Shown: positions 180 to 28,925 of the stretch, piece after piece
Layout: every line of letters starts with the position of its first letter
Numbering within the stretch: the first letter of the stretch is position 1
Source: an uncultured Candidatus Peribacteria bacterium
GTDB lineage: Bacteria; Patescibacteriota; Gracilibacteria; UBA1369; PNNO01
Assembly: GCA_964585825.1 (NCBI GenBank)
Contig: CAZPFH010000001.1
Span: forward strand, 1-46,813
Direction of reading: 5' to 3'
Length of the DNA: 46,813 nt
The notes under the pieces: model-generated
The model's database searches: none
Told to the model about the DNA's origin: nothing
What the model saw: the letters and a program-made list of their open reading frames with translations, nothing else
Position numbers and translations under genes: made by a program

Positions 180-297
180 ATACCTGAATACGCACGGGCG
201 GTCATAAAGCGAACAAAAATCAAAAAACTTTTCTTTTTTCTGGCAACTTCTTTTGCAATACAGAGCCTCGCTTGAACTGTCTTTTTTGGCTTATTTG

Positions 298-306
298 TGC
301 TAAAAT
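298..306 (+). promoter_or_regulatory. Extended -10 promoter element TGcTAAAAT upstream of the giant gene
   Basis: TG at 298-299 and TAAAAT at 301-306, about 30 nt before ATG 338. No good -35 at 17-nt spacing (TTGAAC at 272-277 is 23 nt away). Confidence 0.3.
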
Positions 307-337
307 ATATAGATTAATATAACGAGCATATGCGCGT

Positions 338-442
338 ATGAAGCACCATTACCTTTATAAAAAATTGCAACGATTTGTGTGCGGAATGCTGATTCCCATG
401 CTTCTTGCAAGTCAGCTTGTTATTCCTTCAACGGTGCATGCT
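338..442 (+). other. Signal peptide of the giant protein (cleavage after VHA, before QF)
   Basis: Basic n-region MKHHYLYKKLQR, hydrophobic core FVCGMLIPMLLASQLVI, then PSTVHA-Q. Confidence 0.7.
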
Positions 443-3400
443 CAATTTGGCAACCAGGAAAATCCCCCAAAACAGGTAACTTCGTTGATAGCTATTGTTG
501 TCGATGAATCATTAATTGAAGATGACACGCCATACGAGGGACTAACGACCGACTATCCGGATGAACTGGGAGCACAAACTCTTCGCGATCGAATTTATCG
601 TTTTGCACGTGATACGCAACTGGCTGATCCTTTTACAAGATCTATTATTCTTCGTGTCGACGAAAATCAAAATCCGCATGATATAGCGCAAGCTTTGGAA
701 ACTCTTTATTTCAAAGGTGATCAAGCGGAAGAAACGGCCAGTCAGCTTGAAGGCGTTATTACCGTGGGAGATGTTCCGTTACCTGTCGTCAATAAAAACG
801 GTTTCCGTTTTGTCAGTATGCTTCCCTATAGCGACTTTGCTGAACCCGCTTATGTGTATAATCCAACAACACGAGAATTTGAATATAATCAGGACACTAT
901 TAATCCCAAGGTTGAAGCATGGCACGGTGTTATAAAATCTCCATCGGCCGAGACTGAAGCAGCTTTTGACTATGCTTCTTATTTCGATAAAAATCATTTA
1001 TTTCATCAAGGCCATCAGGACTTTAACACATTCGATCAAGAATTGCTTTTTGCCGATATGATCTGGGAACAAGAAATGTACGATGAAACTATGGGTACTC
1101 GTTATGAAAACTATATAGAATTCATGGAAGATATTGCATATCGACGATTTTCAAAAGAATTAATCAAAGAAATAATTGGAGAACAGGAAAGCGAAGAAGA
1201 TCTCATTGATGAAGATGGAGACTTCGATCTTGAAAGTCTAAGCAGTCCCGACACTTTTGCAGGCGTTCCGGATGCTCACAGCAAAATTATTCTCATGTCG
1301 TATGTCGCCAAATTTAATGAACTTTTTAAAAATTATTTACAAAAAGCTAATGATTTGGTCGAAGGAACAGGTAGGTATAAAAAATACGATTCTATTGTCA
1401 AACTCATTACAATCAAAGATCTTCATACACAGGAATATCTTCGTATGGTAAACGATGCGGTTGAACGGCGTGTAGACGATATCGTCACGCCGCTACAAGG
1501 AACAATCCCCATTATTGAAACGGCAACCATAGGAGGAACCGTAACATATGATGACGACACAACCGCCAACCTTATCTCATGGAACTTTACCAATAACAAC
1601 ATTCAGTCATATAACGACCCAGTACTGGGAACGTATGACACGGTATACTATTACGGGAAACCCGCTCCATCGTTAGAATCCGCAGAAGAATGCACTCTTT
1701 TTAGAGGAAACGCCGAATTAAACAGACTGTATAACAGGGAAACCGAGGACAATCATAGTAGTGCCGAAGATTATGGATATTGCTATGGAGCAAATGCAGA
1801 AACCCCCGAACGCTGCTTCCCGGACATCGCAAGCAAATGGATTTTCGATGAAGACGGCTCTATGGCAAACGAAGACATTTCCCCGTATGCAAAAGGTATT
1901 GGCGGGTGCTACGATTTTCGTGAAACATCACGATTTAATACTTACTTAAGTGAAGTGGCAAGTTATATACTCGCACTTAGCTTTGCTTCAACAGAAGCTG
2001 AAAAAGATGCCATTCCCCTACCCGGTTCAAAATACAGACCGGTCGAAAATATTACCTTATTGGGGAGTCCGTCTATTTCATTAAAAGATATTCTTGATAT
2101 TTACGGAGGATTTGACGGTAAAGACAATGATGGGGATGGCTCCATTGATGAAGCCGATGAATATAATCTTGATTATAAAATAAATGCAAATGATCCATAT
2201 GAAATCGGGTATAAACTTCTTGGAAACAGAAAAAATTTCTTTGTCATAAACAACCCGCCGTTTGATGGTATAAAACGTATTAATTTACAAATAACTCAAC
2301 AAGCTACTGATTTTAATCAAGGAATTGACAGTATTACTTATCACAAAGAACCTACGGTGGAGACAATACAGCATCATCTTGAAAAAGGAACAATAGACAC
2401 ACTGCCGATAGATGATCCCCGTTACGTTTCATTCGTAGATCAAAACGGCGTGTATCATGAAATTGTATATCCCAATACATTTAAAGCAGACGGTGTTGCA
2501 AACTATCTTCAAGAACTTATAGATCTAGAAGATTATTTGATGCAGCTGCCGGGAGCCAACTCAAGTACCATTGAAGGAGCATTGCAAGATGTATTAGAAG
2601 CGGAAGAAACGAAATATCTCGATACTGAAAAACAGATTATGGATAAAACAAGCTATGAAGAGGCTCGAGATATCATATGGTGGAAAAACGCAACAATCGA
2701 CAAAAAACATATTTATGCATTCAATCGTTATCTTGATAGTTCTTACAACACTTATACCACTGAAAATGAAAATGGCTATGAATACTTCTACTTTACCGCT
2801 GACGGTAATCCTAACGAGGTACATTTTGCACTTAATAAAGACCCTACTATTATTGAGCAAGATCCCGAATGGCTGGATCCGGAATCACAACTGGACCCTT
2901 CACTTGAAGAAACCTTAGAAGACGATGATGATAACGATGCCCTTTCTGAAGCTATTCCTCTTGCCGAATGGATTGTCTACCTGGTGGAATATTTATCGGA
3001 ACTCAGTAAATTGCCGGAGGGACTCAGTTTTCAGCCCGCATGCGGAGATGGACAAAACAATATAGCAACCGCTATTGAAAATCTTACTGATGAAGAAAGA
3101 AAAGAGATTTTTGGTGATTCAAACGAAAATGGCATTCCGGACGGTGCTGAAAACACTACTGTCTTAAAACTGCGTTTTGAAAATAATTCGAACATGATCC
3201 GTACCGGCAGCACTGAGACGTATGATTTACATGTTGAAGCGCAAGATGCAACCGGATTACCAAATTATTTTGATTCATACACGGAACTTTATCTTGTTCT
3301 TTCCGACAATGAGTCGCCAAAAGCACGTATCTATGGGTCAGACAGCGTCAAGCTGGTCAACGGACAAGCTGTCTTTAGCATAAATGCAACCGATATTGCC

Positions 3401-6400
3401 GGTGATTTTACGGCACGTGTTGTCAGTACCAATACGGAAGAAACTATAACTTCAAATGTACTAACCATAACAAGTGAAGCTCGAAGAATTCGACTCTTAA
3501 CTTATGAAACACAACTTTTTGAACCTCCTTCATACGAAGAAGAGATATTAAAAGATTATCTGGTACTGGACGATGATGAAGAAACAATCGCCACAATTGA
3601 TGCAAACACCGGCAAGATCAACATAATCGATTTGGAATATGAAGTTGCGGTATTTGAATCAACGGCCAATCAACCGATGCGTATAGCCATAATCGAAACG
3701 CAATCCGGCAACACTATGGCAAGCGTCTCTCTTGTCCCGGATTTTTCAAGTGAAGATACGGTTACTGTTCGAGACACTGCGTTTACCGACCAATCTTTGA
3801 CTTCAATTGAAGGAGTACAAGTATATGATGTCAATCAAAATGACAATATTGACATTTATAACGACAATGCAGTTGTCTATATTGTCGATAACCGTTCTGA
3901 ATACACAAAGCGCATAGCAAAAATAACACCACAAGGAGACATCTTCTTAGGCGATGAATATTTTATTGATATTGCCAATGAAGAAAATACGGACCAACCT
4001 TACCTTTTTGTACTTGAAGATGCGGCCGGCAACGATATAGTGCAGATTGGTATTGCTTACCGATTAGGATCAATGACTACACACGAAAATCTTATAAGCA
4101 ATATAAACGAAATAATAGACCGCTTTGCAAATATCGCATATGCACAAAGTGCATCGGAAAAAGATACCGACAACGATGGTTTAAACGATCTTGAAGAGTT
4201 TATTTTAAATACAAATCGTATCGACAAAGACACCGATAAAGACGGTTTCAATGATGGCGAGGAAATCACTTATGGCTATGATCCTCTTAAGAAAGACACA
4301 CGCTTATTTACCGATCTTGATCCTCAAGACCCTTCATATGAAGCATTTACCACCTTGCTACTACGTGGCATTATTCAGCAACATCCGGACAATAAGGTTC
4401 GCCCTCAAGACAATATTACCCGTGAAGAATTTGTCCAAATGGTGCTTGGTATTACGTGCACCAACTGCAGTTCATTTTCCGAGCAGACAAAAGAAGAAGT
4501 CGATAATAATTACGATCAAAGTCCTTTCCCGGACAGCGACATTGACCCAAACTACGAATATTGTATCAAAGAAGCAAAAAACATTGACGTTGTCAGCGGT
4601 TATGAAGGCGATCAAGATACCGGATTTTTTAAGCCAAAGTATTATATTAGCAGGGCTGAAGCCACTAAAGTAACATTGGAAGCAGCCGGTATTGATTCAA
4701 CCAAATACATTGATCCCGCTCAGCCATGGTACTACCGATATGTTATGGCTGCGCAGGAAAACAATATTTACCCTCATGCCCTTCCTCAAGAAGGCTTCAG
4801 TACATGGATCCAATCACCAATAACCAGGGCTGAATTCGCTATGATGGTACAAAAAGCCATAAAATCTTTTGATTGCTATGTAATTGACGATGATAATGAC
4901 GGCCTACCAAATAATTTTGAATACTATCAATATAATACCGACCCGAACAGTGCCGACACCGATGGTGGAGGGCTCGATGACTTAGATGAAATATTGCGTA
5001 ATAAAGATCCTTTTGATCCTTCAGACGACCTCCTGCTTGATGATGATAATGACGGCATGACAAATCAATGGGAAGAGCAATACAATCTTGATCCATACGA
5101 TCCCGCTGATGCTTATTTCGATGACGATAATGACGGACTCGTAAATCTAGAAGAATTCAATAACCAAACGGATCCGCTTAACCCCGATACTGATGGAGGA
5201 GGAGTCAATGATGGGGACGAAGTCCTTTTACAAACGACCGATCCGTTAGATTCATCAGATGATCAAGACAATCCTTCGTTGCAATCAGGGATACATGCTT
5301 TCGGTGACATTATACAAGACACTGCATATAGAATTGTTGAGGAAGGCGAAGCTAAAGAAGTGCCAAATTATATTAACAACCTTCCTGCCGATGGAGAAAG
5401 CAGATTATTTCTGGCTGCGGAAATACTTGATGAAAACGGCGACATAAACATTAATGATTCCAGCAGTACGATACAATTCAGCATTGAAGATTCATCTACA
5501 ACAACGGTAGACATTGAACAAAACCAAGTAAAAGCACTGGAGGGCGTTGCATTAACACAGATTTCCTCAACGACAAAAGCGGGACTTGTTGATATCACCG
5601 CAAGTCGTGCCGGGTCTCCTCTCCCGATAGAAACGCATCAAGTGTTTGTAGAGCCTCTTGAACCGGTACAATTGTCAGTCCAAGCACAATCTCCTGTTAT
5701 CAAGGCCGGAGGGCTCTCCAAAACACCGATCACAATAACTCTCAAAGATCGTTACGGCAATATAGTCAACAATGACTTTTACGAAATGACCGTCTGGCAT
5801 GACGGTCCCGGAAGACTCGATCAAGAAGCGGATACTAAAAAAGACATAGACGGCGTCCAATTACAATCGTTTGAAGGGACATTTTATGTCGACCTTTATT
5901 CGGCGGAAGAACCGGGATCAATTATTGTTCACGCAAAAGTAAATGATTTATACAATACGGCGACAGTTGATTCTCTTGAAGATATAGAATTTGAACTTTC
6001 GGCCGATAAAGAAATAATCCGGGCGAATGGCGAAGACAGTGTTATTATAACTGCTCGTGCTGTTGATAGCGAAGGTAAGCGTATTGAACAATTCAGTCAA
6101 TCAATCACTTTTGACCATGAAAGCAAGAATGTTGGAAACTTTATTGGTGAAAAAACAATTCCTATGGAAGAAGGACGCGCTTCAATTGAATTTACATCGT
6201 CCACTAAAAAAGGCCCATTGGAAATCACCGCTTCGGCACCGGGCATTGCCCCCGGAAGACTTACTCTTACAATGCAGGCAAATACACCGGTGAAAATAAA
6301 ATTGCATCCGGCAGATCAAAAGTTTGATGCTTCTTCACTCCAACCAACAGAAATTATAGCAAAATTGTATGATCAATATGATAATTTTGTCGATCATGTA

Positions 6401-9400
6401 GACGATATACCTATTAATTTTCGCATTACAGAAGCTACTCAAAAATATGCAAAAACTGATGGATTAACAGATACTGTAAGTACAGAAGGACAAGCATCGG
6501 GATACATAATAGGCAATGAGATTTCAGGACCGGTTCATGTTATTGCTTCTTCTCCGGGACTTATTTCCGGAACCGTTGAATTACAAGCAATAGAAATTAT
6601 TAGGCAAGAAGAATTTATCGGAGAATCTCCTCATGCACTTTATGGCACCATGCTTGGTGGTGCATACGGCGATACACAAACTGAAAATTATTTGGGAGGA
6701 GAACTGCTTTTCAGGGGAACTCTGCAAGCGATTACAGCTATGACTGTTCCGGCTAAGCTAAACGACTCATTAGTTACCGTTATGCCGCACGGTGGCATCG
6801 ACATCACTAATGAAAACCAAATAGAATCAAAACTTTTACCTTCAAACGGTAGCTTTATACCAAATCGGATTATGCTTTCAACGCCCGATACGCAAAAAGA
6901 TGTTGCAGAAATATACTATCAATATCCGGGTGACCAGTCGGTAAAAATCGTCAATGATACCACTACATTAAGCAACGGAATCTACCTTGTCCCAAAAACC
7001 AATGATCAACAATTTAATTTTAACAAATCAGGCAACAAAGCAAGTATTACAGTAAACGGCCTTGAAGCACTTAGTGTCAGCCAAAATGGCTCTATAACGC
7101 TCAACGATAATAATTTTGTCATAGATGTAAGTAAATCGGGAGGACCATTTCTGACGCTTGATATCGGATATAATAACACTTCGGTGGCACAAATTATATT
7201 CGCAATCAATCTTAACAACGACATTTCTATTGTCGACAACACTTTTGTCTATCAACCGGGATATCCTTATGCTCCAGGTATATATATCAAAGAGCTCCAA
7301 CCGTTCTCGACATATTTTATCGACACTATGTACACCACATCTTCCACTCAAGACCCAAAAGGTGCACATATAGGAAGCGGGGATATTGATATGCCGAGAG
7401 ATAAGGCTCCCGGATTTTCATATACATCGCTTGAAGACGTATATGAATCGTTCGGTGTCGGTTTTGACGGAGATAACAAACATTCTCTTTTCTTTGCGGC
7501 GGGTAACAGCGTCGGGCAATCGTCAAAACCATATGTTTCTGATGCGGCTATTAATCTTGGAGACCCTACTGTTCGCATTAAAAATGAACATCTTGCCGGA
7601 GCATCCGGCTTCACCGACGATGTTGGCAAGCCACTTTATTCATCGCAAGAAACAATACAAGAACTCATGCTCGCCGATTACAATAACGACGGCCTTGACG
7701 ACCTTATTGTAGCTTTTGAAAACGGTAACGTGCGTTTACTTGAAAGACAATTGTCAGCTGAGCCATATGAAGACAAAGGTTTATTGTTAGATCTTGCAAA
7801 TGGCATTTACAGTGCAGCATCAGCCGACTTTAACAATGACGGATATGATGATTTGCTTTTTGCCACACAAGAAAGTTGTATCGGTGATGAAGTATGTATT
7901 TACCTTTTCGAGAACAACGAAGGGGCCCTCAACAGGGTGCATATTCCGCTTGAAATAGAGGATAAAATAAGTTCTCTTATCATTGCCGATGTAAATAATG
8001 ATGATTATCCGGATATCATAACAGCTGAATTTGCAGGCAATATTAGTATATTTTACAACGAAAACGGTCTCATAAATCCTAAAGGTCAACTGCTTGAAAA
8101 TGTCGGCAATCATATTAGTTCCGGAACTGATCTTAAAGAAGAAGTTTTGATTAGTTATGAAGGTATGCCGACCGAGGATGAAACAACACTTGAAGATGAC
8201 TTTGATTATGAATATATACAACTTGAAATAGGTGATCCGTCGGGAAACAATGATGTCGACCCCGCATTACAAGAACAATTAGTAGAACTTGGAGCAGATC
8301 CTGCGGATTTTGCCACTCCGGTTGAAGTTGAATTTATTTATGCAGATGCAGATCCGATTTTCGGTACTGCGGATTCTTCAAAAACAGCAGTTGATGTTAA
8401 CGGATCTTCGTTGGCATTAGACGACAATATTGTTTATACCATTACGCTGACCAACACAAGTGCTAGCGATATAGACAATATTTTCGTCAGTGACATAGCT
8501 CCCGACTTGCTCGAAATAAACAAAGAATCGATTCAGTGTCTGCAATGTGAAGCCCCACCTACCATTCTTGAAACCGATCTTACTTTGAATCCATATGTCA
8601 TTACCGGAATTTCCATACCTGCGGGAGAATCGCGAACAATAACATACGAATCAACGGTTATTTCCGTTCCCGATATTGCTATTGATACAAACAAAAATTA
8701 TGACGTTGAATTCCCAAAAGATGACTATCTTGATATTCATGTACGCCCAGAAAACAACACTTCCGGAAAGATGTTATTCTTTTATTCAGTTTCAAAAAAT
8801 CCGGAAAACGGAAGAATGACATACGGTAAATATGTTGCAGAACCGACACCGAGCGATCCACCCGAATTGCCGTTTGATGATACGGATCTTAATAATAACG
8901 GTATACCCGATGAAATTGAAAATATTGCAAAAGAACAAAAAGAAGGCGACGAAGACGGCGATGGGATCCCAAACAGTTGGGATGAAGTTAATGGTACCCT
9001 GAACGATGTAAAAGATATCGTTTCCAATGCTATTCAAGATTACACCTGTAATGGAGGGTGTCTTCCCGTACCTATGAACAAGGCTTTCTTTGCCCCCGGT
9101 GAAAATAATAATATGGGAGCCAGCGCACCCCCTCCAGATAGCGGCACACCCGTTTTTGTATATGAACCTGTAAAAATATTCTTAAGTCCGACACTGACGG
9201 GTAATCTAGGTAACTCCGTGTGCGTTTCAGGCATGTGTTGGTCCATCACCGTTCCTTTATTACCACCCGATGTATGTGATCAAATAACCGGTGCCTTCGG
9301 TAACGCTATGGCAAACGCAGGCAATGTTGTCAGCTCTTTAGGTTCGAGTACATCTTTATTGGGAGGTGGCAGTGGCCCCGGCGGCGGCCCTTCTGTTTCC

Positions 9401-12400: not shown

Positions 12401-15247
12401 ACACCTCCGGATAAAAACAAACAAATTCTCACTTTAAGCAAAAACACCATTTTACCTATTTCGACACAGTACGCATATGACCTTACATTACGTGTAGCAT
12501 CGGGAAAAGTGGAAATAATTGATAGTCAATCTCAAGAAATCGTAGAAAAAGAATTATCAGCCGGTATGCTTGTAAGCTTTGGCGACTCCATAACCATGAA
12601 AGAAGGATATAGCACTCTTGCATTTATAAACGGTGCCAGAACATATCTTGGCCCGGAAGACACATTGCAATTAGAAGAACTTGTTGATTCAAGCAATCCC
12701 TTCCTCAGTATAGATATACCTGAAGGAAATTACTACGGACAAATTTATTCTTTTGACGAACAAGGAAATAGGAGCAACCCGTCGGAAGTTGAGTTATTCG
12801 CTCCTCAATTGTGTTCGGACAAACAAAAACCTTATGCGGAAGCCGGAAAATCCGAAAAAGAGGTCATTATTTATCAAACACTGGATATTGATGCATCCAA
12901 ATCATTCGACACCGAAGGAAGTATTACAACATATTATCTGGACATTGATCCGGAAACAGATACTGATAATGATGGAGATAGCACAAATGACATAGATATT
13001 ATTAATGAGCCGAAAAACATTCCGCACTTTCAGCTTGGACCTTTTGAAGAAATAGACACGCATACCATAGTTTTAAATGTTTTGGACGAATCCCAAAACC
13101 GAGGGCAACAAACAATTAATATTAACGTTATCATCCCGACCATTACCCTTGACAACGCATCGGCCACAGAAGAAGTGATTACCGGATCCATAGATCCCGT
13201 AGCACAAGATATCCCTCTTGCGCTCATTCGAAATCGAGATGGATTACAAACACAACTTATAACCGAAGAAGCAAATGAAAACGGTATGTATCTAACAGAT
13301 GAAAAAGGCGAGTTCAGTATTCAAAAACTCATTTTTGAAGATACGTTGCTCCTTCGCAATATAGATGGTGATATTATAGCTGAAATAGACGACAAAACAG
13401 GAAGAATAACTATTGTTGACGAGCGCTATTATGTCGATGTGTTGGAAGCGATGCCCCCATCTATGCCAACACGACTTGTTGTAAAAGAAAAATTAACCGA
13501 CTTATTGCTTCTCACTATTTTGCTAATCCCGGATCAAAACACTGATGTAACCATTGATGATAACCAAATCAATTACACCAATGAAACGGTTGAAGAATTT
13601 GAAGGCGTACATATTAAAGATAGCAATATAAATGACACTTTAAACTTAAAACCATTACCGGCTTCAGATCCGAATTTTACCGGAGCCGCTGAGCTTATCG
13701 ACACGTCGACAGACACTCGAATGTCTATTATAGATTCCGGCGGCAATGTCTACTTCTTTGATGAAAAACTTGACTTGCAAATGAAAGCAGCAGGGCAAGC
13801 TGACCCTCTAACAATAGAAATGCTTTATGAAGGGTCGGTTATAAATGAAATGTATTTTGCCATTAACAATAATCGTCCGGCTGAAATTATGGATCGAGAC
13901 GAACTGGATATACCTTCTGAAGGAGACAAGATGTCAGATCAAGATAATGATGGTATGCCGGATTATTTTGAGTTCATGTATGGCTTTGATGCACTCGACC
14001 CAAAAGATGCGCTGCTTGATAGTGACGGTGACGGATTATCTAATCTCGAGGAATTTCGATTGGGAACCAATCCGCATAATGCCGATTCGGATAATGACGG
14101 CTATAGCGATAGCGAAGAAGTTGCTTTTGGAAAAGATCCAACAAAACCGGCAATATCACCGTTTGATGATGTTAACCCTGATCACCCCTATTATGATGCC
14201 ATCTTAGATTTATCACAAAAAAATATATTACGTGCAACAAATGAAAATGGAGGAATATATTTTAATCCGGACACCTTTATTGCCAGAAAAGATTTTACTG
14301 ACATTATCTTGAAAATGCTTTGTATTATACCGCGACCGGAAAGTTATCAGCCACCATCTCTTTTCTCAGACATCACGTACTCGGAAACAGATTATTATTA
14401 CGCAGTAATAAAAGAAGCTGTTTATCAAGGCTTCGTTACGGGATATTTAGGAGAAATTGATGCGGCAACAGGGCTTTCCCCATTCAAACCTGATATTAGT
14501 ATTTCTCGAGCGGAAGCTGTAAAAATTGTATTGGAAGCTCTGGAAAAACAAAAAATTATCACATTACGTGGCATAACTGAAATCGATAATTCCCCATGGT
14601 ATACGCCATATATGCACATAGCACAAGATTTGACACCGATATTGCTTGAAGAAAGTGCTGTTAATGAAACTTATATTGTTACACCCGAAGAAGCGCAGTC
14701 TCCAAACAAACCAATTACCCGAGCAGAATTTGTCGCTATGGCTGACCGAGTATTAAAGGCTTTTGATTGCTATGATATTGATGATGACGGCGATGGTATG
14801 CCAAGTGTGTGGGAATTGGATAATGGACTTAATCCGTTCGATCCAAGTAATGCCACAAACGATCCCGATAATGACGGGTTAACTAATCTGGATGAATATC
14901 GTTTCGGTACCAACCCATTTGACCCCGACACCGATGATGGTGGTATAATGGATGGAATAGAGGTTGAAAGAGGGACCGACCCTCTAGACCCTTCAGACGA
15001 CTTGCCTGACGCAGACGAAGATCTAATCGATCCTTCAGATGACCCGTCTGCTGAAGACACCGATCCGAGAAGTGGCCTTGAAGAAGGCATCTATATACTA
15101 ACTGAGCCATGCAATTCATGTCCATGTATATCAGCAGTCGATCACAAAGCAGATCTGATTCCGGGAGATATTTTCTTTACCGTTATAGGTACACCCGATC
15201 TCTCTACAATATTTACCAAAAGTAACGAACTCATTTATGAAAAATAA
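338..15247 (+). CDS. Giant (4969 aa) secreted, cell-wall-anchored mosaic surface protein (putative adhesin or appendage protein)
   Basis: Uninterrupted 14.9-kb ORF with ATG start and an N-terminal signal peptide. It carries multiple recognisable extracellular modules (TSP3, SLH, Ig-like, FG-GAP, DUF11-like, PKD-like). No internal TM helix was seen. Confidence 0.9.
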   Translation: MKHHYLYKKLQRFVCGMLIPMLLASQLVIPSTVHAQFGNQENPPKQVTSLIAIVVDESLIEDDTPYEGLTTDYPDELGAQTLRDRIYRFARDTQLADPFTRSIILRVDENQNPHDIAQALETLYFKGDQAEETASQLEGVITVGDVPLPVVNKNGFRFVSMLPYSDFAEPAYVYNPTTREFEYNQDTINPKVEAWHGVIKSPSAETEAAFDYASYFDKNHLFHQGHQDFNTFDQELLFADMIWEQEMYDETMGTRYENYIEFMEDIAYRRFSKELIKEIIGEQESEEDLIDEDGDFDLESLSSPDTFAGVPDAHSKIILMSYVAKFNELFKNYLQKANDLVEGTGRYKKYDSIVKLITIKDLHTQEYLRMVNDAVERRVDDIVTPLQGTIPIIETATIGGTVTYDDDTTANLISWNFTNNNIQSYNDPVLGTYDTVYYYGKPAPSLESAEECTLFRGNAELNRLYNRETEDNHSSAEDYGYCYGANAETPERCFPDIASKWIFDEDGSMANEDISPYAKGIGGCYDFRETSRFNTYLSEVASYILALSFASTEAEKDAIPLPGSKYRPVENITLLGSPSISLKDILDIYGGFDGKDNDGDGSIDEADEYNLDYKINANDPYEIGYKLLGNRKNFFVINNPPFDGIKRINLQITQQATDFNQGIDSITYHKEPTVETIQHHLEKGTIDTLPIDDPRYVSFVDQNGVYHEIVYPNTFKADGVANYLQELIDLEDYLMQLPGANSSTIEGALQDVLEAEETKYLDTEKQIMDKTSYEEARDIIWWKNATIDKKHIYAFNRYLDSSYNTYTTENENGYEYFYFTADGNPNEVHFALNKDPTIIEQDPEWLDPESQLDPSLEETLEDDDDNDALSEAIPLAEWIVYLVEYLSELSKLPEGLSFQPACGDGQNNIATAIENLTDEERKEIFGDSNENGIPDGAENTTVLKLRFENNSNMIRTGSTETYDLHVEAQDATGLPNYFDSYTELYLVLSDNESPKARIYGSDSVKLVNGQAVFSINATDIAGDFTARVVSTNTEETITSNVLTITSEARRIRLLTYETQLFEPPSYEEEILKDYLVLDDDEETIATIDANTGKINIIDLEYEVAVFESTANQPMRIAIIETQSGNTMASVSLVPDFSSEDTVTVRDTAFTDQSLTSIEGVQVYDVNQNDNIDIYNDNAVVYIVDNRSEYTKRIAKITPQGDIFLGDEYFIDIANEENTDQPYLFVLEDAAGNDIVQIGIAYRLGSMTTHENLISNINEIIDRFANIAYAQSASEKDTDNDGLNDLEEFILNTNRIDKDTDKDGFNDGEEITYGYDPLKKDTRLFTDLDPQDPSYEAFTTLLLRGIIQQHPDNKVRPQDNITREEFVQMVLGITCTNCSSFSEQTKEEVDNNYDQSPFPDSDIDPNYEYCIKEAKNIDVVSGYEGDQDTGFFKPKYYISRAEATKVTLEAAGIDSTKYIDPAQPWYYRYVMAAQENNIYPHALPQEGFSTWIQSPITRAEFAMMVQKAIKSFDCYVIDDDNDGLPNNFEYYQYNTDPNSADTDGGGLDDLDEILRNKDPFDPSDDLLLDDDNDGMTNQWEEQYNLDPYDPADAYFDDDNDGLVNLEEFNNQTDPLNPDTDGGGVNDGDEVLLQTTDPLDSSDDQDNPSLQSGIHAFGDIIQDTAYRIVEEGEAKEVPNYINNLPADGESRLFLAAEILDENGDININDSSSTIQFSIEDSSTTTVDIEQNQVKALEGVALTQISSTTKAGLVDITASRAGSPLPIETHQVFVEPLEPVQLSVQAQSPVIKAGGLSKTPITITLKDRYGNIVNNDFYEMTVWHDGPGRLDQEADTKKDIDGVQLQSFEGTFYVDLYSAEEPGSIIVHAKVNDLYNTATVDSLEDIEFELSADKEIIRANGEDSVIITARAVDSEGKRIEQFSQSITFDHESKNVGNFIGEKTIPMEEGRASIEFTSSTKKGPLEITASAPGIAPGRLTLTMQANTPVKIKLHPADQKFDASSLQPTEIIAKLYDQYDNFVDHVDDIPINFRITEATQKYAKTDGLTDTVSTEGQASGYIIGNEISGPVHVIASSPGLISGTVELQAIEIIRQEEFIGESPHALYGTMLGGAYGDTQTENYLGGELLFRGTLQAITAMTVPAKLNDSLVTVMPHGGIDITNENQIESKLLPSNGSFIPNRIMLSTPDTQKDVAEIYYQYPGDQSVKIVNDTTTLSNGIYLVPKTNDQQFNFNKSGNKASITVNGLEALSVSQNGSITLNDNNFVIDVSKSGGPFLTLDIGYNNTSVAQIIFAINLNNDISIVDNTFVYQPGYPYAPGIYIKELQPFSTYFIDTMYTTSSTQDPKGAHIGSGDIDMPRDKAPGFSYTSLEDVYESFGVGFDGDNKHSLFFAAGNSVGQSSKPYVSDAAINLGDPTVRIKNEHLAGASGFTDDVGKPLYSSQETIQELMLADYNNDGLDDLIVAFENGNVRLLERQLSAEPYEDKGLLLDLANGIYSAASADFNNDGYDDLLFATQESCIGDEVCIYLFENNEGALNRVHIPLEIEDKISSLIIADVNNDDYPDIITAEFAGNISIFYNENGLINPKGQLLENVGNHISSGTDLKEEVLISYEGMPTEDETTLEDDFDYEYIQLEIGDPSGNNDVDPALQEQLVELGADPADFATPVEVEFIYADADPIFGTADSSKTAVDVNGSSLALDDNIVYTITLTNTSASDIDNIFVSDIAPDLLEINKESIQCLQCEAPPTILETDLTLNPYVITGISIPAGESRTITYESTVISVPDIAIDTNKNYDVEFPKDDYLDIHVRPENNTSGKMLFFYSVSKNPENGRMTYGKYVAEPTPSDPPELPFDDTDLNNNGIPDEIENIAKEQKEGDEDGDGIPNSWDEVNGTLNDVKDIVSNAIQDYTCNGGCLPVPMNKAFFAPGENNNMGASAPPPDSGTPVFVYEPVKIFLSPTLTGNLGNSVCVSGMCWSITVPLLPPDVCDQITGAFGNAMANAGNVVSSLGSSTSLLGGGSGPGGGPSVSGRSNSGGVTGSSVLGNYQASGSSKTNSRIPGFVNIIAGWFAKQLDEVVTKLADLPDLYILYPDPNAFTSGVPPKADFKNLSDVLTYLNKLPILEIEARPITIKIPALSQAEIEKMQTKMKKWVADAKRELERAELKWPCNADQATKQTCIKAVGDVENTINSVEKNIKILEEYKQLPRKILEWREIQTKYLTQVICYIDTIINYMGGYFKKQMLRVKGWTDLITEIKDILGIWEELNNMMKEYIKNCDTCTSDRYTLFQTLVTTLTGALPEIPIIPFPKWPDFYFDFSKIQLGYKIIWPDVTFRPEEIILPNIPPLTLPDLPQINPPIDSLKVGTTLPSIPTLPEPPELPELPDLPPIPMPELPDIPKPPKIPDIAGPIKSGLSAIGKIIKIVCMLKKSILPIPESKLKTHIEALTARSLDGVFPMDLAFNFQSPSLTYPFVEKIKVTSKMDFRLETEKIYESVENVAKQWNEIATDVAEKPQEVSVPEADIEGTLTYVIINEYLKAIALLQHAADIQEQYIDSLPESYHLIANQSYISTDSTVQNRSLEDIKTALKKEDLPDIMNTNTLVSLRQGLIAYVDNQSTLLSEYKYTDIKELIAMEAKATTLGDHLTKRRVADRKPQQISYNPQSEKQESFSEIREYGKRLLALNTNAISDAVVDQETATGAQSGQSIEGLYVYNEETGVNERILMYEGESSLPNHAVIADIDNDSDEDIIYSYGGNIYLKENYEKPKDSMHLMYNATNPTVYTVNDFIPASESVHGFETTYDSGTSTDFGWDSTSSGSIAGYEIIYKDSLNDMDSTTYTPSDKIVVLENIDTKTTVGRINNDIEITAVEGSFTVNGETSSYYGFDDTITTGEDANTRVVITFTDSSQVILGPNTSLTLPSYEPGNFEIIVHYGKAAFKSNFFTNIFLQEGSRVINEEADVVLEYKNGDIIGLDKESYFFASTKSEGIGYVQSLNGKATIKTTPRYTVTSNSSSTKVHNGQVIHVMEDSVFTLTPPDKNKQILTLSKNTILPISTQYAYDLTLRVASGKVEIIDSQSQEIVEKELSAGMLVSFGDSITMKEGYSTLAFINGARTYLGPEDTLQLEELVDSSNPFLSIDIPEGNYYGQIYSFDEQGNRSNPSEVELFAPQLCSDKQKPYAEAGKSEKEVIIYQTLDIDASKSFDTEGSITTYYLDIDPETDTDNDGDSTNDIDIINEPKNIPHFQLGPFEEIDTHTIVLNVLDESQNRGQQTININVIIPTITLDNASATEEVITGSIDPVAQDIPLALIRNRDGLQTQLITEEANENGMYLTDEKGEFSIQKLIFEDTLLLRNIDGDIIAEIDDKTGRITIVDERYYVDVLEAMPPSMPTRLVVKEKLTDLLLLTILLIPDQNTDVTIDDNQINYTNETVEEFEGVHIKDSNINDTLNLKPLPASDPNFTGAAELIDTSTDTRMSIIDSGGNVYFFDEKLDLQMKAAGQADPLTIEMLYEGSVINEMYFAINNNRPAEIMDRDELDIPSEGDKMSDQDNDGMPDYFEFMYGFDALDPKDALLDSDGDGLSNLEEFRLGTNPHNADSDNDGYSDSEEVAFGKDPTKPAISPFDDVNPDHPYYDAILDLSQKNILRATNENGGIYFNPDTFIARKDFTDIILKMLCIIPRPESYQPPSLFSDITYSETDYYYAVIKEAVYQGFVTGYLGEIDAATGLSPFKPDISISRAEAVKIVLEALEKQKIITLRGITEIDNSPWYTPYMHIAQDLTPILLEESAVNETYIVTPEEAQSPNKPITRAEFVAMADRVLKAFDCYDIDDDGDGMPSVWELDNGLNPFDPSNATNDPDNDGLTNLDEYRFGTNPFDPDTDDGGIMDGIEVERGTDPLDPSDDLPDADEDLIDPSDDPSAEDTDPRSGLEEGIYILTEPCNSCPCISAVDHKADLIPGDIFFTVIGTPDLSTIFTKSNELIYEK
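3150..3480 (+). other. Isolated Ig-like (Big_1/invasin-like) domain
   Basis: TVLKLRFENNSNMIRTGSTETYDLHVEAQDATG...VKLVNGQAVFSINATDIAGDFTARVVS follows the pattern of bacterial Ig-like group 1 domains. Confidence 0.4.
4163..5270 (+). repeat. Cassette A: TSP3 repeats, then 3 SLH-like domains, then TSP3 repeats
   Basis: DTDNDGLNDLEE and DTDKDGFNDGEE are D-x-D-x-DG-x-x-D Ca-binding repeats. Three SLH-like units follow (F-x-D...ITREEFVQMVLGI; ...ISRAEATKVTLEAAGI; ...ITRAEFAMMVQKAI). Then come KSFDCY and five more DDDNDG / DTDGGG repeats. Confidence 0.7.
5381..6595 (+). repeat. Array of four tandem Ig-like (Big_1-type) domains
   Basis: Four units of about 100 aa each. They contain ADGESRLFLAAEILDENG, AGGLSKTPITITLKDRYGN, ANGEDSVIITARAVDSEGK and DASSLQPTEIIAKLYDQYDN, each ending in a ...ITAS / HAKV / IASSPG strand. 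Confidence 0.65.
7673..8070 (+). repeat. Three FG-GAP/VCBS-type repeats
   Basis: ADYNNDGLDDLIVAFENGNV, ADFNNDGYDDLLFATQ, ADVNNDDYPDIITAEFAGNISIFYNENG. Confidence 0.65.
8381..8660 (+). other. DUF11-like (conserved repeat) beta-sandwich domain
   Basis: KTAVDVNGSSLALDDNIVYTITLTNTSASDIDNIFVSDIAPDLLEI...ISIPAGESRTITYESTV. Confidence 0.5.
9331..9475 (+). repeat. Gly/Ser-rich low-complexity linker
   Basis: VVSSLGSSTSLLGGGSGPGGGPSVSGRSNSGGVTGSSVLGNYQASGSS. Confidence 0.8.
10331..10525 (+). repeat. Proline-rich (D/E)-L-P periodic segment (polyproline-II-like spacer)
   Basis: PNIPPLTLPDLPQINPP...LPSIPTLPEPPELPELPDLPPIPMPELPDIPKPPKIPD. Confidence 0.8.
12826..13130 (+). other. PKD-like domain
   Basis: KPYAEAGKSEKEVIIYQTLDIDASKSFDTEGSITTYYLDID...HTIVLNVLDESQNRGQQTININV fits the P-x-A-x-AG...LD-x-S-x-S-x-D-x-x-G-x-I-x-x-Y pattern. 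Confidence 0.5.
13937..15070 (+). repeat. Cassette B: TSP3 repeats, then 3 SLH-like domains, then TSP3 repeats (paralog of cassette A)
   Basis: DQDNDGMPDYFE, DSDGDGLSNLEE and DSDNDGYSDSEE come first. SLH-like units follow (FDDVNPDHPYYDAILDL...ARKDFTDIILKML; FSDITYSE...ISRAEAVKIVLEAL; ...ITRAEFVAMADRVL). Then come KAFDCY and DDDGDG / DPDNDG / DPDTDDGG. The 15-nt string CTTTTGATTGCTATG is shared with cassette A (4866-4880 and 14760-14774). Confidence 0.7.
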
Positions 15248-15785
15248 TCGCATACCAAGTATCATCGCTATTCTAATTACTGTAGTATTCTCGTTTCATA
15301 CGGGAATAGTACATGCCCAAGAATCAGATTTAAGTACTAAAGATACGAAATGTGTTGAAGAAATGAAACCGTTCATGGAAGAGAAAACAACTGAATTTCG
15401 TGAATATCTAACGCAACATTTTCAAAGTAAAAAAACAAACACTTCACTTCTTGATCTGGCTTTAAAGCGATTTGAGCTCTACAAAAAAGACCTTCGCGAT
15501 AAATATAAAACATACTTCGCCGAAACCGGAAAAGCCATTTTCAGTGAAACGCACGACAATTTATCATGTAAAAAGAAAATGGATGAAGAAATTCAAACAA
15601 TGGAATTGTTGTTAAAAAGCTACTATAAACAAACATCAAATATTAAAACAAGCACCGCATACATGACAAAATTGCAGCAAATAAACAAAAAACTAGACAC
15701 ATTGGTTTTTAATATCACTCAAATGTTGGGCAAATGGAATTCGCTGGAAAATCGCATTCCATGTTTCGTTAAACAATGCTTATGA
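15237..15785 (+). CDS. Small secreted helical protein P1 (182 aa), C-terminus ...PCFVKQCL*
   Basis: The ATG overlaps the giant gene's end by 11 nt. Signal peptide IPSIIAILITVVFSFHTGIVHA-QE. K/E-rich helical composition with 4 Cys in the mature part. Confidence 0.75.
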   Translation: MKNNRIPSIIAILITVVFSFHTGIVHAQESDLSTKDTKCVEEMKPFMEEKTTEFREYLTQHFQSKKTNTSLLDLALKRFELYKKDLRDKYKTYFAETGKAIFSETHDNLSCKKKMDEEIQTMELLLKSYYKQTSNIKTSTAYMTKLQQINKKLDTLVFNITQMLGKWNSLENRIPCFVKQCL

Positions 15786-16405
15786 AAAACACAATAAAAA
15801 AATGTCTACAAATCGGCATTCTTATCATAACAGTGAGTCTATTCATCTGTTATGCATCGATCATATCACGTGCGAATTCAACTATAAATCCGTACGATAC
15901 ACCGGATAAAACCATTCAAGAAGTTGAGAAATCTTATCATAAACGTATTAATGAAATATTTAACGCCAAGTTAACTCTTTTAAAGCAAGGAGAAGATGGT
16001 AATGGTACAACCGAAATACCAAAAAATGATGAATGTAGCGAAAACAACTACAGTACTTATTGTTTAGCTATGACAGTCGCCAAAGAATATGATCTCTATA
16101 ATGCCGCCCTCGGGAAAAGGAAGGCGGTTACAAATCCGCAAGAAGAAGAAACCGTTGATCAATTGGCACTTCGTACTATCGCCGAACACAATGAAATAAA
16201 AAATGAACTTGATAGATCAAAAAAAGCCCTTGATATAAGCATAAAGACGTATGATGAGCTTTTAGCTGCTTACCGTATGCATTTGCAATATGAAAAAATT
16301 ATTGAAAGTATAACAAAATATAATAAAAAGCTCATTGAGTTCCGGGAAGAAGTTGACAAATTACCCGGAAAATTCATTGATGCTACCACAACACAATGCA
16401 CCTAA
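15782..16405 (+). CDS. Small secreted or membrane-anchored helical protein P2 (about 207 aa), C-terminus ...TTTQCT*
   Basis: ATG 15782 overlaps the P1 stop as ATGA. The track's ATG 15776 lies inside the P1 Gln-Cys codons CAATGC. Hydrophobic N-terminus IGILIITVSLFICYASII. Confidence 0.7.
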   Translation: MKNTIKKCLQIGILIITVSLFICYASIISRANSTINPYDTPDKTIQEVEKSYHKRINEIFNAKLTLLKQGEDGNGTTEIPKNDECSENNYSTYCLAMTVAKEYDLYNAALGKRKAVTNPQEEETVDQLALRTIAEHNEIKNELDRSKKALDISIKTYDELLAAYRMHLQYEKIIESITKYNKKLIEFREEVDKLPGKFIDATTTQCT

Positions 16406-16410
16406 TAACT

Positions 16411-17886
16411 ATGAAAAAAATACTGCAATACATATCGATCATCTTTATTTACTCGTTTATTAGCATAAATGCAGCTTGTGCTGCCACAAGTCCCGTTGAT
16501 GAACTTATTGAGGAGTTTGAAGGTAAATCCAAAACAGCGCTTGCACAAGACATGTATCTGCAGATCTATAAAGATATAAATGATAAACCTAAAGAACAAG
16601 CTGCTAAAAACGTTTCCAGCACTTATTCAATGACTGAAGATCAAATCAATAAGCTTGTTCAAGAAGGAGATTTATCGGCTATTATAAAAGATGATAAAAA
16701 CGCGGATCTAAACAAAGTACTGTTACAATACCAGAAAATAGCAAATGATTACCAACGTACTTTAGAAACGGAAAATATCCGCAGTGAACTTACTATGGAA
16801 ACAAAGCCAAGCGAAGTATTCATGGATGGAGACACATCAAACTCAGAATTTGATATATTATATGATCTAACAATTATTGAAGTTATTTTATTTAATGAAG
16901 CCTCAACTAGTGAATTTGGCGGACAATTTACGGCCCCGGATTTTAATTTTACCGATGAAGAAGAAAAGAAGTTGATTGAAGAACTATTTGATACAACCTC
17001 AACGGATCAAACAACTCAACAAAGCGCTACCCAGAGCGATAACAGCTTTTCCGCTTTACAATGTTTAGGCGAAGAATCAGCGCTTAATGAAGCGCTTTCC
17101 GAATATGAAGATAGACAGAAAACAAACGGTGAAGAAGGAGATTCGTCCAATGAAGACTATCAAGGAGATGAGCCTGTAAATGCGGAAAACTTTCCAAAAG
17201 CGGAAAGCGATCCATGGCCATCAAAATATTTATGTCCTGACGGCGCCTTTTACTGCATAGATATCTCTTTCGATTTAAAAGCGGCAAAAGCACACGGAAA
17301 AACGGATAATTGCATTGCATGTCATGTGCAAAAAATAAATGAATCACTCGATAAATTATTAAGCAAACCTCTATCGGCAAACAAATTAACAGGAAACCTC
17401 TTAGAAGTACCAAAATGTAAGGCCTCGTATAGCAATATACCGGTAAATATGAATATTATTTTGCTTGCGGTTACACCTCCGCGACAAGCAAATCAAGATA
17501 AATATGTAAAATTGGATATCAATAAAGAATGGATAAATCTAAAAGAACGACTTAATGTCTTTTTCTACAATACTGACAACCCTCCACCCGAAACCAAACT
17601 TGAAGATAGAAGTGTCAAAGAGGCACTTCAAGCCGCACCCGATAATCCAAGCCTTAACAATGTTTCGTTACGAGCTTCCAATAGAACACAGCAAACACAA
17701 GAAAAAGTTACCGAAAATGCGGAGACAAAAAAACAAGAGAACAGGACGGAACTGAACAATACTGAATATCAAATGGTTATTAATGAAATGGAAACAATGA
17801 AGCAATCTTTTCAAACTATATTAACGAAATTAAAAGAAATGAAAAAGCCATGCAACAATATCGCCAATAAATCTTATTGCCAATAA
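16411..17886 (+). CDS. Secreted protein P3 (about 491 aa, possibly a lipoprotein), C-terminus ...PCNNIANKSYCQ*
   Basis: ATG 16411 gives MKKILQYISIIFIYSFISINAAC-A, a signal peptide with a non-canonical lipobox-like INAAC. The track's ATG 16396 again lies inside CAATGC of P2. An acidic T/Q-rich middle is followed by a Cys-rich block containing CIACH. Confidence 0.7.
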   Translation: MKKILQYISIIFIYSFISINAACAATSPVDELIEEFEGKSKTALAQDMYLQIYKDINDKPKEQAAKNVSSTYSMTEDQINKLVQEGDLSAIIKDDKNADLNKVLLQYQKIANDYQRTLETENIRSELTMETKPSEVFMDGDTSNSEFDILYDLTIIEVILFNEASTSEFGGQFTAPDFNFTDEEEKKLIEELFDTTSTDQTTQQSATQSDNSFSALQCLGEESALNEALSEYEDRQKTNGEEGDSSNEDYQGDEPVNAENFPKAESDPWPSKYLCPDGAFYCIDISFDLKAAKAHGKTDNCIACHVQKINESLDKLLSKPLSANKLTGNLLEVPKCKASYSNIPVNMNIILLAVTPPRQANQDKYVKLDINKEWINLKERLNVFFYNTDNPPPETKLEDRSVKEALQAAPDNPSLNNVSLRASNRTQQTQEKVTENAETKKQENRTELNNTEYQMVINEMETMKQSFQTILTKLKEMKKPCNNIANKSYCQ

Positions 17887-17889
17887 TAT

Positions 17890-18915
17890 ATGAAAAAAAG
17901 CATCATACGAAAAATAGGAACCATAGGAATACTTTTAATAGTAAGCGTTGCAACTCTGGGTACGGAACATGTTCGTGCACAAGAAACAACAATCTCATTA
18001 AACACTTCTTGCTTTACCGAATGGGATACGTTTATTTCTTCAACAATTTCCGTTGATGAGTTTTTAGAATACTGGACCGACATCCTGATCCGATATAATC
18101 GAAACACATGTTATTACATGGATATACAATATGTACTTAAGCAAATTGATACAACTCGTTCAGCCCTTCGCAAAGCCATTTTAGCATGTGACGATGACCA
18201 AGTTGGACCACTCAAAACACGTTTTTACGAATTGAAGTTAGAACTTGATTACCTGCGCTTATTTGTTTCTTTTGCAGATAAAGGAGGAAGACTTATTTCG
18301 GAAGAAAAAGTTTATAAACAATTAAAAGAAAAATATGTTGATACGGGTCTTGATTTTACCAAAGAAGAATTCGATATATTGTTCGACCGCTATCAAACAA
18401 AATATAAAGGAAACTTCTCATCAATATATCAGAGGTGTAGTGACGGAAGCATAAAGCAACTTGTAGACAGATGGGATAAACTTGTCGAGACCTTGAAATC
18501 AATGCAAGCAAGTTCAAAAGCGGTTAAAGCAGATTTCGACAGGGCGATTAACAAGCCGCCGCAAGGTATGCAGAATTTTATAAAAAATCTCGAACAAGCG
18601 CAAAAAGAATCAATAGAAGCACAAAAAAATCCTGAAGAAATTTTCAATCAAACAACGCAGGAAACCGGAACCGAACCAACTATTGATCAACTTACCGTTG
18701 CAATAGAAGAAAACAAACAAGATTATCAAGAAAAAATACAACAGGCGTCGTTAACCGCAAAATACGAAGCCTTGTATAAACATGGTGGAGATAGCCTTGC
18801 CGAGAGCTATGAAAAGGTATTAAAGGATCTTGATAAGATAGTAAAAGACTCTTACAAGCCACTGGAAGACCTTAAGCGATGTGCTAAAGAGTCTGCCGAT
18901 CGACAATGCCAATAG
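17890..18915 (+). CDS. Small secreted helical protein P4 (341 aa), C-terminus ...RCAKESADRQCQ*
   Basis: The ATG is 3 nt after the P3 stop. Signal peptide IGILLIVSVATLGTEHVRA-QE. 6 Cys in the mature part. The operon terminator follows. Confidence 0.75.
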   Translation: MKKSIIRKIGTIGILLIVSVATLGTEHVRAQETTISLNTSCFTEWDTFISSTISVDEFLEYWTDILIRYNRNTCYYMDIQYVLKQIDTTRSALRKAILACDDDQVGPLKTRFYELKLELDYLRLFVSFADKGGRLISEEKVYKQLKEKYVDTGLDFTKEEFDILFDRYQTKYKGNFSSIYQRCSDGSIKQLVDRWDKLVETLKSMQASSKAVKADFDRAINKPPQGMQNFIKNLEQAQKESIEAQKNPEEIFNQTTQETGTEPTIDQLTVAIEENKQDYQEKIQQASLTAKYEALYKHGGDSLAESYEKVLKDLDKIVKDSYKPLEDLKRCAKESADRQCQ

Positions 18916-18918
18916 CAC

Positions 18919-18956
18919 AAAAAACTCCCGAAGGAATGTTGTGGGGAGTTTTTTGC
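18919..18956. terminator. Bidirectional rho-independent terminator between convergent operons
   Basis: AAAACTCCC (18921-18929) pairs with GGGAGTTTT (18944-18952) around a 14-nt loop. It is flanked by an A-run on the left and a T-run on the right, so it reads as hairpin plus U-run on both strands. Confidence 0.7.
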
Positions 18957-19001
18957 TAAGGCTTTTCTAGGGCTTGTATTTTAAGAGGTCGTATTACAAT
19001 G

Positions 19002-19497: not shown

Positions 19498-19517
19498 AAT
19501 AAATAAATTCTACTTAA

Positions 19518-19546
19518 ATCTTACCACTTTTAGCAAATTCCTTCAA
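19518..19546 (-). promoter_or_regulatory. Sigma70-type promoter for the HTH/zinc-ribbon pair
   Basis: On the minus strand: TTGAAG, a 17-nt spacer ending in TGg, then TAAGAT. It lies about 20 nt upstream of the TTG start. Confidence 0.4.
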
Positions 19547-28873: not shown

Positions 28874-28880
28874 AAACCCC

Positions 28881-28920: not shown

Positions 28921-28925
28921 ATTTG

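Follow-up and report, generated by a model that had tools for sequence, protein, structure and literature searches.

A conserved five-gene unit encoding a giant SLH-domain protein and four small secreted proteins in Peregrinibacteria

The DNA analysed here, positions 1 to 46,813 of contig CAZPFH010000001.1 (assembly GCA_964585825.1) from an uncultured Candidatus Peribacteria bacterium and called the window at its full length of 46,813 nucleotides, carries at positions 338 to 18,915 a compact unit of five genes, which encodes a giant protein of 4969 residues with S-layer homology (SLH) domains and four small secreted proteins, named P1 to P4. Peregrinibacteria are tiny, uncultured and probably host-dependent bacteria. 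The five genes keep their order in relatives, the small proteins are conserved and match no characterised family, and the giant belongs to a large family of collinear proteins with a diagnostic central module. On balance, we consider it probable that the products form a secreted, wall-tethered assembly of several subunits, with the giant as scaffold and binding surface and P1-P4 as stoichiometric partners, likely for contact with a cell or surface.

An initial annotation, made from the letters of the window, had placed five open reading frames between a promoter-like element and a terminator. All five are present on the forward strand with identical coordinates, and base-by-base reading returned the same junctions: the giant gene ends with TAA at 15245-15247 and overlaps the P1 start (ATG at 15237) by 11 nt, P1 and P2 share an ATGA at 15782-15785, and gaps of 5 and 3 nt precede P3 (ATG 16411) and P4 (ATG 17890), respectively. 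In nearly all relatives the junctions also overlap or span no more than about 10 nt, the exception being locus L007 with a P2-P3 gap of 121 nt. The genes and signals of the unit are the following.

338-15247, forward strand: giant gene, 4969 aa, from the list of open reading frames
15237-15785, forward strand: P1, 182 aa, secreted
15782-16405, forward strand: P2, 207 aa (209 aa from 15776), secreted
16411-17886, forward strand: P3, 491 aa (496 aa from ATG 16396), secreted
17890-18915, forward strand: P4, 341 aa, secreted
18913-18958, forward strand: intrinsic terminator, a hairpin flanked by A- and T-runs, at the 3' end of the operon
136-180 (hairpin about 136-175), forward strand: terminator hairpin and T-run of the upstream gene, isolating the operon at its 5' end
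298-306, forward strand: putative promoter, extended -10-like TGCTAAAAT, read in the sequence

The terminator proposed for the 3' end is a hairpin of -17.8 kcal/mol (z -3.4) with a T-run after it, and the hairpin of the upstream gene reaches -17.6 kcal/mol (z -5.4), with none of 200 shuffles as stable. The proposed promoter fared less well: the extended -10-like TGCTAAAAT is present, but it comes without a -35 and without statistical support. In the consensus scan, promoter-like matches were no commoner here than in shuffles, and TGCTAAAAT is not listed because the -35 is lacking; its role as a promoter element is plausible but unsupported. The locus had also been called self-contained, which holds for its transcription signals but not for everything else it needs, as other regions of the genome must provide for export, the cleavage of signal peptides, the formation of disulfides and the SLH ligand. 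Within the 47-kb window, CsaB, which relates to the pyruvylated secondary wall polymer ligand, was not found.

As anticipated, all five products start with a signal peptide consisting of a basic n-region, a hydrophobic h-region and a cleavage site of the A-x-A type, and their orthologues do likewise. The V-[HR]-A-Q cleavage context noted for three of them occurs in the window (VHAQ, VHAQ, VRAQ) but is incidental, since it is not conserved among the orthologues. In the giant, the signal peptide takes up residues 1-36 with the sole hydrophobic 19-mer at residues 12-15, and with no other hydrophobic segment the protein is predicted to be fully extracellular once the signal peptide is cleaved. A lipoprotein nature of P2 and P3 was considered and rejected, as the lipobox-like cysteine of their signal peptides is not conserved in orthologues.

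Among the contigs with a P3 or P2 homologue and sufficient sequence, the order giant-P1-P2-P3-P4 is invariant in every locus (about 20 distinct loci), and the giant is followed by the four small secreted genes both in the window and in each of the standard-code loci examined. Scanning species-representative genomes with a P3 profile gave 14 loci, five of them labelled Peregrinibacteria or Peribacteria and the other nine labelled 'Patescibacteria group bacterium', 'bacterium' or 'uncultured bacterium'. Within the close clade, this single-copy and core-like unit lies among housekeeping genes and has an HTH_17 gene and UvrA after it, so that the order there could be explained by synteny of the chromosomal backbone. 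Two distant relatives, reached by way of the giant, have other surroundings. L027 encodes a 4223-aa giant with 39% identity in the central module and recognisable P1-P4, with a pilin gene upstream and an unrelated gene downstream. The giant of L028 (3990 aa, 28% identity) shows no SLH or TSP3 match and is followed by four coupled, secreted, Cys-rich open reading frames of 232, 237, 485 and 460 aa; the flanks hold Peripla_BP_6 and ApbE genes. Since both loci keep the order amid unrelated flanks, the five-gene unit is conserved independently of its neighbours. An unrelated 393-aa open reading frame, without signal peptide or Pfam match, lies between the giant gene and P1 in L027 (14998-16179), which means that the unit tolerates an insertion yet keeps its order.

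Conservation of the small proteins extends over a wide range, for P3 down to 23-35% identity. P1, with 22 distinct orthologues, has the invariant residues C39, C111 and C181, the last being penultimate (alignment A1). P2 is marked by the motifs NYSTYC and KFIDATTxxC-x and by three conserved Cys in the mature protein (alignments A2 and A5), P3 by a conserved DGDTSNSxFD and CPDGAFFC...DNCxACH...PKCK core and a penultimate Cys (alignment A4), and P4 by six invariant Cys, the penultimate residue among them (alignment A3). The exact P4 protein was also found on a Logan contig. The 37 homologues of P3 are all named 'hypothetical' and all come from Patescibacteria-type sources, with P0001 being the identical 491-aa protein. 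Ratios of nonsynonymous to synonymous substitutions (dN/dS), obtained as Nei-Gojobori estimates against the nearest relative (about 80% amino-acid identity), were 0.08 for P1, 0.07 for P2, 0.08-0.10 for P3 and 0.09 for P4, with 0.06 for the C-terminal part of the giant; these values are approximate because dS is 1.2-1.7, and the range of 0.07-0.10 for P1-P4 indicates strong purifying selection.

None of the four small proteins matched a characterised family in Pfam, NCBIfam, PHROGs, PADLOC or the PDB, and the counterparts in L027 and L028 gave no family match in Pfam. Only sub-threshold noise of the coiled-coil type (ZorA tail, tape-measure protein, UPF0242) appeared in these scans, and PDB profile searches with alignments A1-A4 revealed no real match, those to designed armadillo repeats being compositional. 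AlphaFold2 modelled P3 from 26 sequences with a pLDDT of 53 and a pTM of 0.24, a quality insufficient for a fold search. No paralogy among the four proteins was detected in the sequence comparisons made for four pairs: P1-P2, P2-P4 and P3-P4 stayed below 7% hhalign probability each, and the 74% for P1 against the N-terminus of P4 came from an alignment that includes the signal peptides. They were also considered as pieces split off from the giant, which was rejected at less than 9% probability for all of them against 600-aa blocks of the giant family. In P3, CIACH (residues 301-305; 17311-17325) is a canonical attachment motif for c-type haem. A c-type cytochrome was nevertheless rejected, as the His of this motif is replaced by Thr or Ser in three of 26 homologues (P0032, P0034 and P0035). 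Both Cys of the CXXCH are invariant, the motif is missing from the L028 counterpart and no cytochrome family of Pfam matched; the Cys pair of CIACH is probably structural rather than part of a haem site.

With several small open reading frames behind the gene of a large exported protein, the locus superficially resembles those of the contact-dependent inhibition (CDI) or Rhs type, and one could read P1-P4 as independent secreted effectors or as cargo of the toxin/immunity type, co-transcribed with a giant delivery protein. We hold this to be highly improbable. The C-terminal domain of the giant is conserved, being found in 37 of 43 giants compared and seen in the L027 and L028 translations too, and is not polymorphic; the small proteins are fixed in number and order, conserved and under purifying selection; all of them carry signal peptides, unlike cytoplasmic immunity proteins; and no toxin, Rhs/YD or defence family was matched. 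A polymorphic toxin locus was rejected on the same grounds.

The cysteines of the small proteins bear on how they might be held together. P1, P2 and P4 have a Cys no more than five residues from the C-terminus in all of the 20-odd Peregrinibacteria orthologues and in L027, and P3 keeps its near-C-terminal Cys except in the clade of L007, L035 and L036. The terminal position of these residues, the odd number of conserved Cys in mature P2 (three) and a correlated loss suggest, at the level of sequence, intermolecular disulfides. Invariant Cys, a lone one among them, are also present in the central module of the giant. This loss concerns L007, L035, L036, L023 and L037, in which P1 lacks the first Cys of its C-terminal C-x4-C (PC changed to PG) and P3 lacks its penultimate Cys; that both disappear together weakly hints at a disulfide between the C-termini of P1 and P3, or at their lying side by side.

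The same cysteines could also be used for thiol-disulfide exchange, and P1-P4 might be dedicated extracellular assembly factors, such as folding chaperones or helpers in disulfide formation or maturation, which serve the 550-kDa giant once Sec has exported it and stay outside the final structure. This would agree with one P1-P4 set per giant, always downstream, with the helical character of the four proteins and their lack of recognisable binding domains, and with a monoderm cell that presumably has no other obvious folding route for so large an export. However, four distinct, non-paralogous proteins whose translation is tightly coupled look more like stoichiometric partners than like catalysts, P1-P4 have neither a thioredoxin-like CxxC motif nor such a fold (the CxxCH of P3 is not of the thioredoxin type), and P3, with about 490 aa, possesses a strongly conserved Cys-knotted core of its own. 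We therefore regard assembly factors as rather unlikely and stoichiometric partners of the giant as the better description.

The giant itself is a member of a large family. A phmmer search with its residues 3095-3760 gave 424 cluster representatives at E<=1e-3, of which 253 reach E<=1e-30. Most have 3,500-6,000 aa, and the name, where a source gives one, is 'hypothetical protein' or 'uncharacterized repeat protein (TIGR01451 family)'. Word-index searches with residues 2880-3480 and 37-640 returned one and four short proteins among the matches listed and no full-length giants; the full-length members were recovered by the phmmer search, which was exhaustive. Segment-wise comparison of 43 full-length giants revealed a single collinear architecture, with the segments of the window's giant matched in order: N-terminal domain, Ig-like array, propeller, in some cases DUF11, central module, a beta-rich region, in some cases SLH, and the C-terminal domain. 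Located about two-thirds along the protein, the central module defines the family by a CxxxC, by Cys pairs in long helical hairpins, by an invariant CxxC, a tract rich in PxLP and a conserved Cys that stands alone, as well as by invariant Trp, Pro and Glu positions. An AlphaFold2 model of this module from 33 sequences (pLDDT 68, pTM 0.47, with 80-90 in the helical core) displays long helical hairpins and small beta-sheets. Foldseek with this model found nothing significant in the PDB (best E 0.14) or BFVD (best E 0.034), the matches being to generic long helices. The parts of the giant are as follows.

446-1717, forward strand: conserved N-terminal domain, residues 37-460, with invariant ALExLY, GxxPxP, HGVI and FDKNH (alignment A8)
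4025-5287, forward strand: cassette 1, TSP3-SLH-TSP3, residues 1230-1650 (TSP3_bac 60.2 bits, SLH 52.8 bits)
5285-6637, forward strand: Ig-like array of the Big_1/Invasin_D3 type, about residues 1650-2100 (Pfam)
7655-8317, forward strand: FG-GAP beta-propeller region, about residues 2440-2660 (FG-GAP_3 45.8 bits; FG-GAP 24.3 bits)
8393-8665, forward strand: DUF11/CLIPPER-type repeat, residues 2686-2776 (25.5 bits, cut-off 24.6; TIGR01451)
8990-10912, forward strand: family-defining central module, residues 2885-3525 (phmmer family, invariant columns, AlphaFold2 model)
13805-15037, forward strand: cassette 2, TSP3-SLH-TSP3, residues 4490-4900 (TSP3_bac 73.6 bits, SLH 36.1 bits)
15050-15244, forward strand: conserved C-terminal domain, residues 4905-4969, EGxY...CxxCPC...ADxxPGD

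Of the modules that the initial annotation had read into the giant, the TSP3 repeats and the Ig-like, FG-GAP and DUF11 modules exceed the Pfam gathering scores, with the Ig-like array scoring 86.7 bits for Glyco_hydro2_C5 in three stretches, 50.9 for Invasin_D3 and 37.8 for Big_1, while the PKD-like module was not detected by Pfam. SLH (PF00395, cut-off 20.8 bits) is above the cut-off in both cassettes, and a weak PDB match leads to the SLH protein 8bz2. That each cassette holds an SLH triplet is plausible but not fully shown, as the TSP3 runs lie about 200 aa apart, which would accommodate triplets, but Pfam resolves only two SLH stretches in cassette 1 and one in cassette 2. The TSP3-repeat region at 14711-14929 (residues 4792-4864) also matches the NCBIfam 'Amuc_1099 family pilus-like system protein' with 50.6 bits at a cut-off of 50, and MtsD and CglD, cohesion/gliding proteins of Myxococcus, match the TSP3 repeats far under their cut-offs; most likely, these matches stem from shared Ca-binding repeats and not from functional homology.

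The roughly 2000 residues that had been left unassigned include the central module and the conserved N-terminal domain. About half of the giant has no assignment, the N-terminal domain (37-460) and the central region (2885-3760) among it. The N-terminal domain is found in 40 of the 43 giants, is collinear in L024 and, as profile A8, had no sequence match in the PDB. Its motifs (GDxPxP ... HG) may point to a gingipain/C25-like fold, a resemblance that we take as a lead only and that no sequence match accompanies. Pfam and NCBIfam revealed no family of enzymes, transporters, sortases, ushers or ATPases among the five products, in line with what had been stated, but the absence of any enzyme is provisional, as the central module or the N-terminal domain may yet prove to be one.

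To describe the giant as SLH-anchored is adequate for the window, but for the family the anchor is accessory and not the core. The C-terminal cassette occurs in 38 of the 43 sampled giants and the first one is restricted to a clade of giants of at least 5000 aa, the window's giant included, which makes SLH anchoring an add-on to a conserved core formed by all the other parts. This weighs in a further alternative, in which the assembly is a structural element of the envelope, such as a coat resembling an S-layer or a scaffold that spans the wall, rather than a device for host contact. In its favour, SLH anchoring is a typical trait of S-layer and S-layer-associated proteins, the giant would lie along the wall if held by two anchoring cassettes, the core-like locus occurs in one copy and is syntenic with housekeeping genes in the clade, and S-layer genes have been reported for Peribacteria (PMC4736985). 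Against it, some members of the family have no SLH cassettes, L024 and L028 among them, and the other modules (Ig-like, FG-GAP, DUF11) are of kinds typically seen in adhesins. S-layer proteins, moreover, are usually far smaller and self-assemble without four partners. Taken together, we consider an envelope element decidedly unlikely and continue to favour an assembly for contact.

The locus had been interpreted as an extracellular structure, an adhesin or appendage with accessory subunits, and as no known secretion or pilus system. The latter agrees with our finding of no matching families or features. Of the outcomes that the initial annotation had named as refuting it, none was observed among those that were checked. 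As the small proteins are conserved, under selection, syntenic with the giant and without a family match, the locus can be described as a conserved secreted module with no recognisable secretion or pilus system, but the role of P1-P4 as subunits and the adhesin or appendage nature are things that we infer. In the assembly favoured here, the five genes would be transcribed jointly with coupled translation, and their products would be exported by Sec and cleaved by signal peptidase I. The giant would be tied to a wall polymer via its SLH cassettes, in this genome at two points, with Ca-binding TSP3 repeats flanking each, and its Ig-like, beta-propeller and DUF11 modules would face outward as binding surfaces. 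The four small, mainly helical proteins may dock on the giant, most likely at the Cys/Pro-rich central module, where disulfides of the near-C-terminal Cys of P1-P4 would probably lock them. The finished structure would most likely attach the cell to, or bring it into contact with, another cell or a surface, as is expected of a host-dependent bacterium from the candidate phyla radiation (CPR).

Several observations count against this proposal. Co-assembly, disulfide linkage, the docking site and the adhesion role are all inferred, contact among the five proteins included, and adhesion is argued from domain types and analogy. Confidence in the monomer models is low for P3 (pLDDT 53) and moderate for the central module (68), and the correlated Cys loss in P1 and P3 is one evolutionary event. 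Among the L028 partners, only P2 is detectable with a hidden Markov model (E = 6e-6) and this P2 counterpart has no terminal Cys, so that the disulfide idea is not universal. In the TGA-recoded locus L024, which encodes a giant of 4069 aa collinear with that of the window but without SLH cassettes, the gene following the giant is that of the Der GTPase and not P1-P4. This means that a giant can exist without adjacent partners, although these could lie elsewhere in that genome. As a more far-reaching and tentative version, which is possible but to our mind doubtful, the giant and P1-P4 would form an undescribed, disulfide-locked surface organelle of several subunits, built on the central module and the four partners, all lacking a known fold, specific to the Peregrinibacteria/Gracilibacteria branch of the CPR and used by these episymbionts to recognise, hold or breach host cells.

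The recoding in L024 was recognised from the gene itself: at 195-12404 (also in L025 and L026), five called genes merge into the single 4069-aa open reading frame once TGA is read through. It contains 15 in-frame TGA, which align most often with Gly and fit genetic code 25 of Gracilibacteria/Absconditabacteria. Due to this recoding, the gene calls of L024 in the public collection are fragmented.

Comparison with known systems places the giant itself in a broad known kind, that of SLH-anchored or otherwise surface-exposed giant adhesins. With SLH-anchored proteins, including S-layer proteins and the scaffoldins OlpB and SdbA, it shares non-covalent binding to the wall by SLH and Ca-binding, Asp-rich repeats, though SLH is dispensable in part of the giant family. 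Cellulosome scaffoldins are likewise huge modular extracellular scaffolds that recruit other secreted proteins, as the giant may do, but our locus has no cohesin, dockerin or enzymes, and four fixed small helical partners in place of a variable enzyme set. Mycoplasma pneumoniae has a P1 adhesin operon, in which a large adhesin is co-transcribed with P40/P90 and forms with them one surface complex needed for attachment. The likeness lies in a host-dependent cell with a reduced genome and in an adhesin with co-transcribed accessory proteins; there is no similarity in sequence or domains, the anchor is the membrane there and SLH here, and the number of partners differs.

RTX/LapA adhesins as well as sortase-assembled and chaperone-usher pili are also giant or polymeric surface structures for adhesion encoded in compact operons. 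In comparison with the RTX/LapA type, the giant has an N-terminal Sec signal and the locus no ABC/MFP/TolC genes; RTX (HemolysinCabind) matches are absent from the giant and genes of a type I secretion system from the window. Sortase-assembled, chaperone-usher and type IV pili differ by features that the locus lacks, as no LPXTG-type anchor and no prepilin motif are present and the giant has no C-terminal hydrophobic segment. Sortase, usher/chaperone and prepilin plus ATPase families were found neither in the five products nor in the rest of the window (Pfam, NCBIfam).

Closest in kind are the giant surface proteins of Absconditabacteria, a sister CPR lineage, which carry DUF11 and integrin-type domains and were proposed as host-attachment factors, with ten such proteins of 1392-4163 aa in Vampirococcus lugosii (PMC8080830). 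Like the window's giant, they are extracellular and combine DUF11, integrin/FG-GAP-type and Ig-like adhesion domains (PMC8080830), and the recoded L024 protein is an orthologue collinear with it. However, they were described by domain content only, no small-gene set or central module being reported, and the L024 orthologue has neither SLH cassettes nor adjacent P1-P4. Within the same phylum, 'Candidatus Peribacter riflensis' has large extracellular, partly cysteine-rich proteins (PMC4736985), and Peregrinibacteria show an excess of uncharacterised huge proteins without functional assignment (PMC11573180). These resemble the giant in being very large, secreted, thought to be related to attachment and without COG or function, but no five-gene unit, no four small secreted proteins and no central module were described for them (PMC4736985, PMC11573180). 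In the literature searched, we found no description of the operon, the four-gene partner set, the central module or the extent of the family.

The remaining genes of the window (GC content about 39%) are those of an ordinary cellular chromosome, namely UvrA, PrsW, RecF, ThrRS, PurL, S6, BacA, PurH and an M23/LysM peptidase, and the cell that carries it is a Peregrinibacteria-type CPR bacterium, presumably monoderm. Converging on P4, a gene for a 104-aa HTH_17 protein (excisionase/MerR-like) lies at 19183-19497 on the reverse strand; all Peregrinibacteria loci keep it at this place before UvrA, whereas L027 and L028 do not. Upstream of it, an AT-rich spacer of 380 nt (19500-19880) contains short direct and palindromic repeats of the TTAAACTT type. 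Further along, a run of six open reading frames at 26741-38631 on the reverse strand, none with a Pfam match, encodes proteins of 713 aa, 1233 aa, 759 aa (multi-pass membrane, with a Gly/Ala/Pro tail), 484 aa (C-terminal transmembrane segment), 564 aa (internal transmembrane segments) and 165 aa (two transmembrane segments). At the position after ThrRS that is equivalent to that of the 1233-aa gene, L002 has a 1227-aa gene and L005 a 709-aa gene, orthology being assumed from position in both cases. Possibly, these genes encode another membrane machine that is specific to the lineage.

Outside the type IV pili of Saccharibacteria, little has been explained of the ways in which CPR/Patescibacteria, which account for much of bacterial diversity, attach to their hosts and exploit them. 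The locus turns one of the huge proteins of Peregrinibacteria into a defined and testable system, with more than 400 clusters, a diagnostic module and four co-translated partners, and it predicts a complex linked by disulfides, a tether formed by SLH and docking at the central module. Were P1-P4 chaperones instead, the locus would still represent a new assembly route for a 550-kDa exported protein in a monoderm cell. If the assembly proposed here is true, the unit would be a marker operon for a lineage-specific surface structure and would add four new protein families and one new module.

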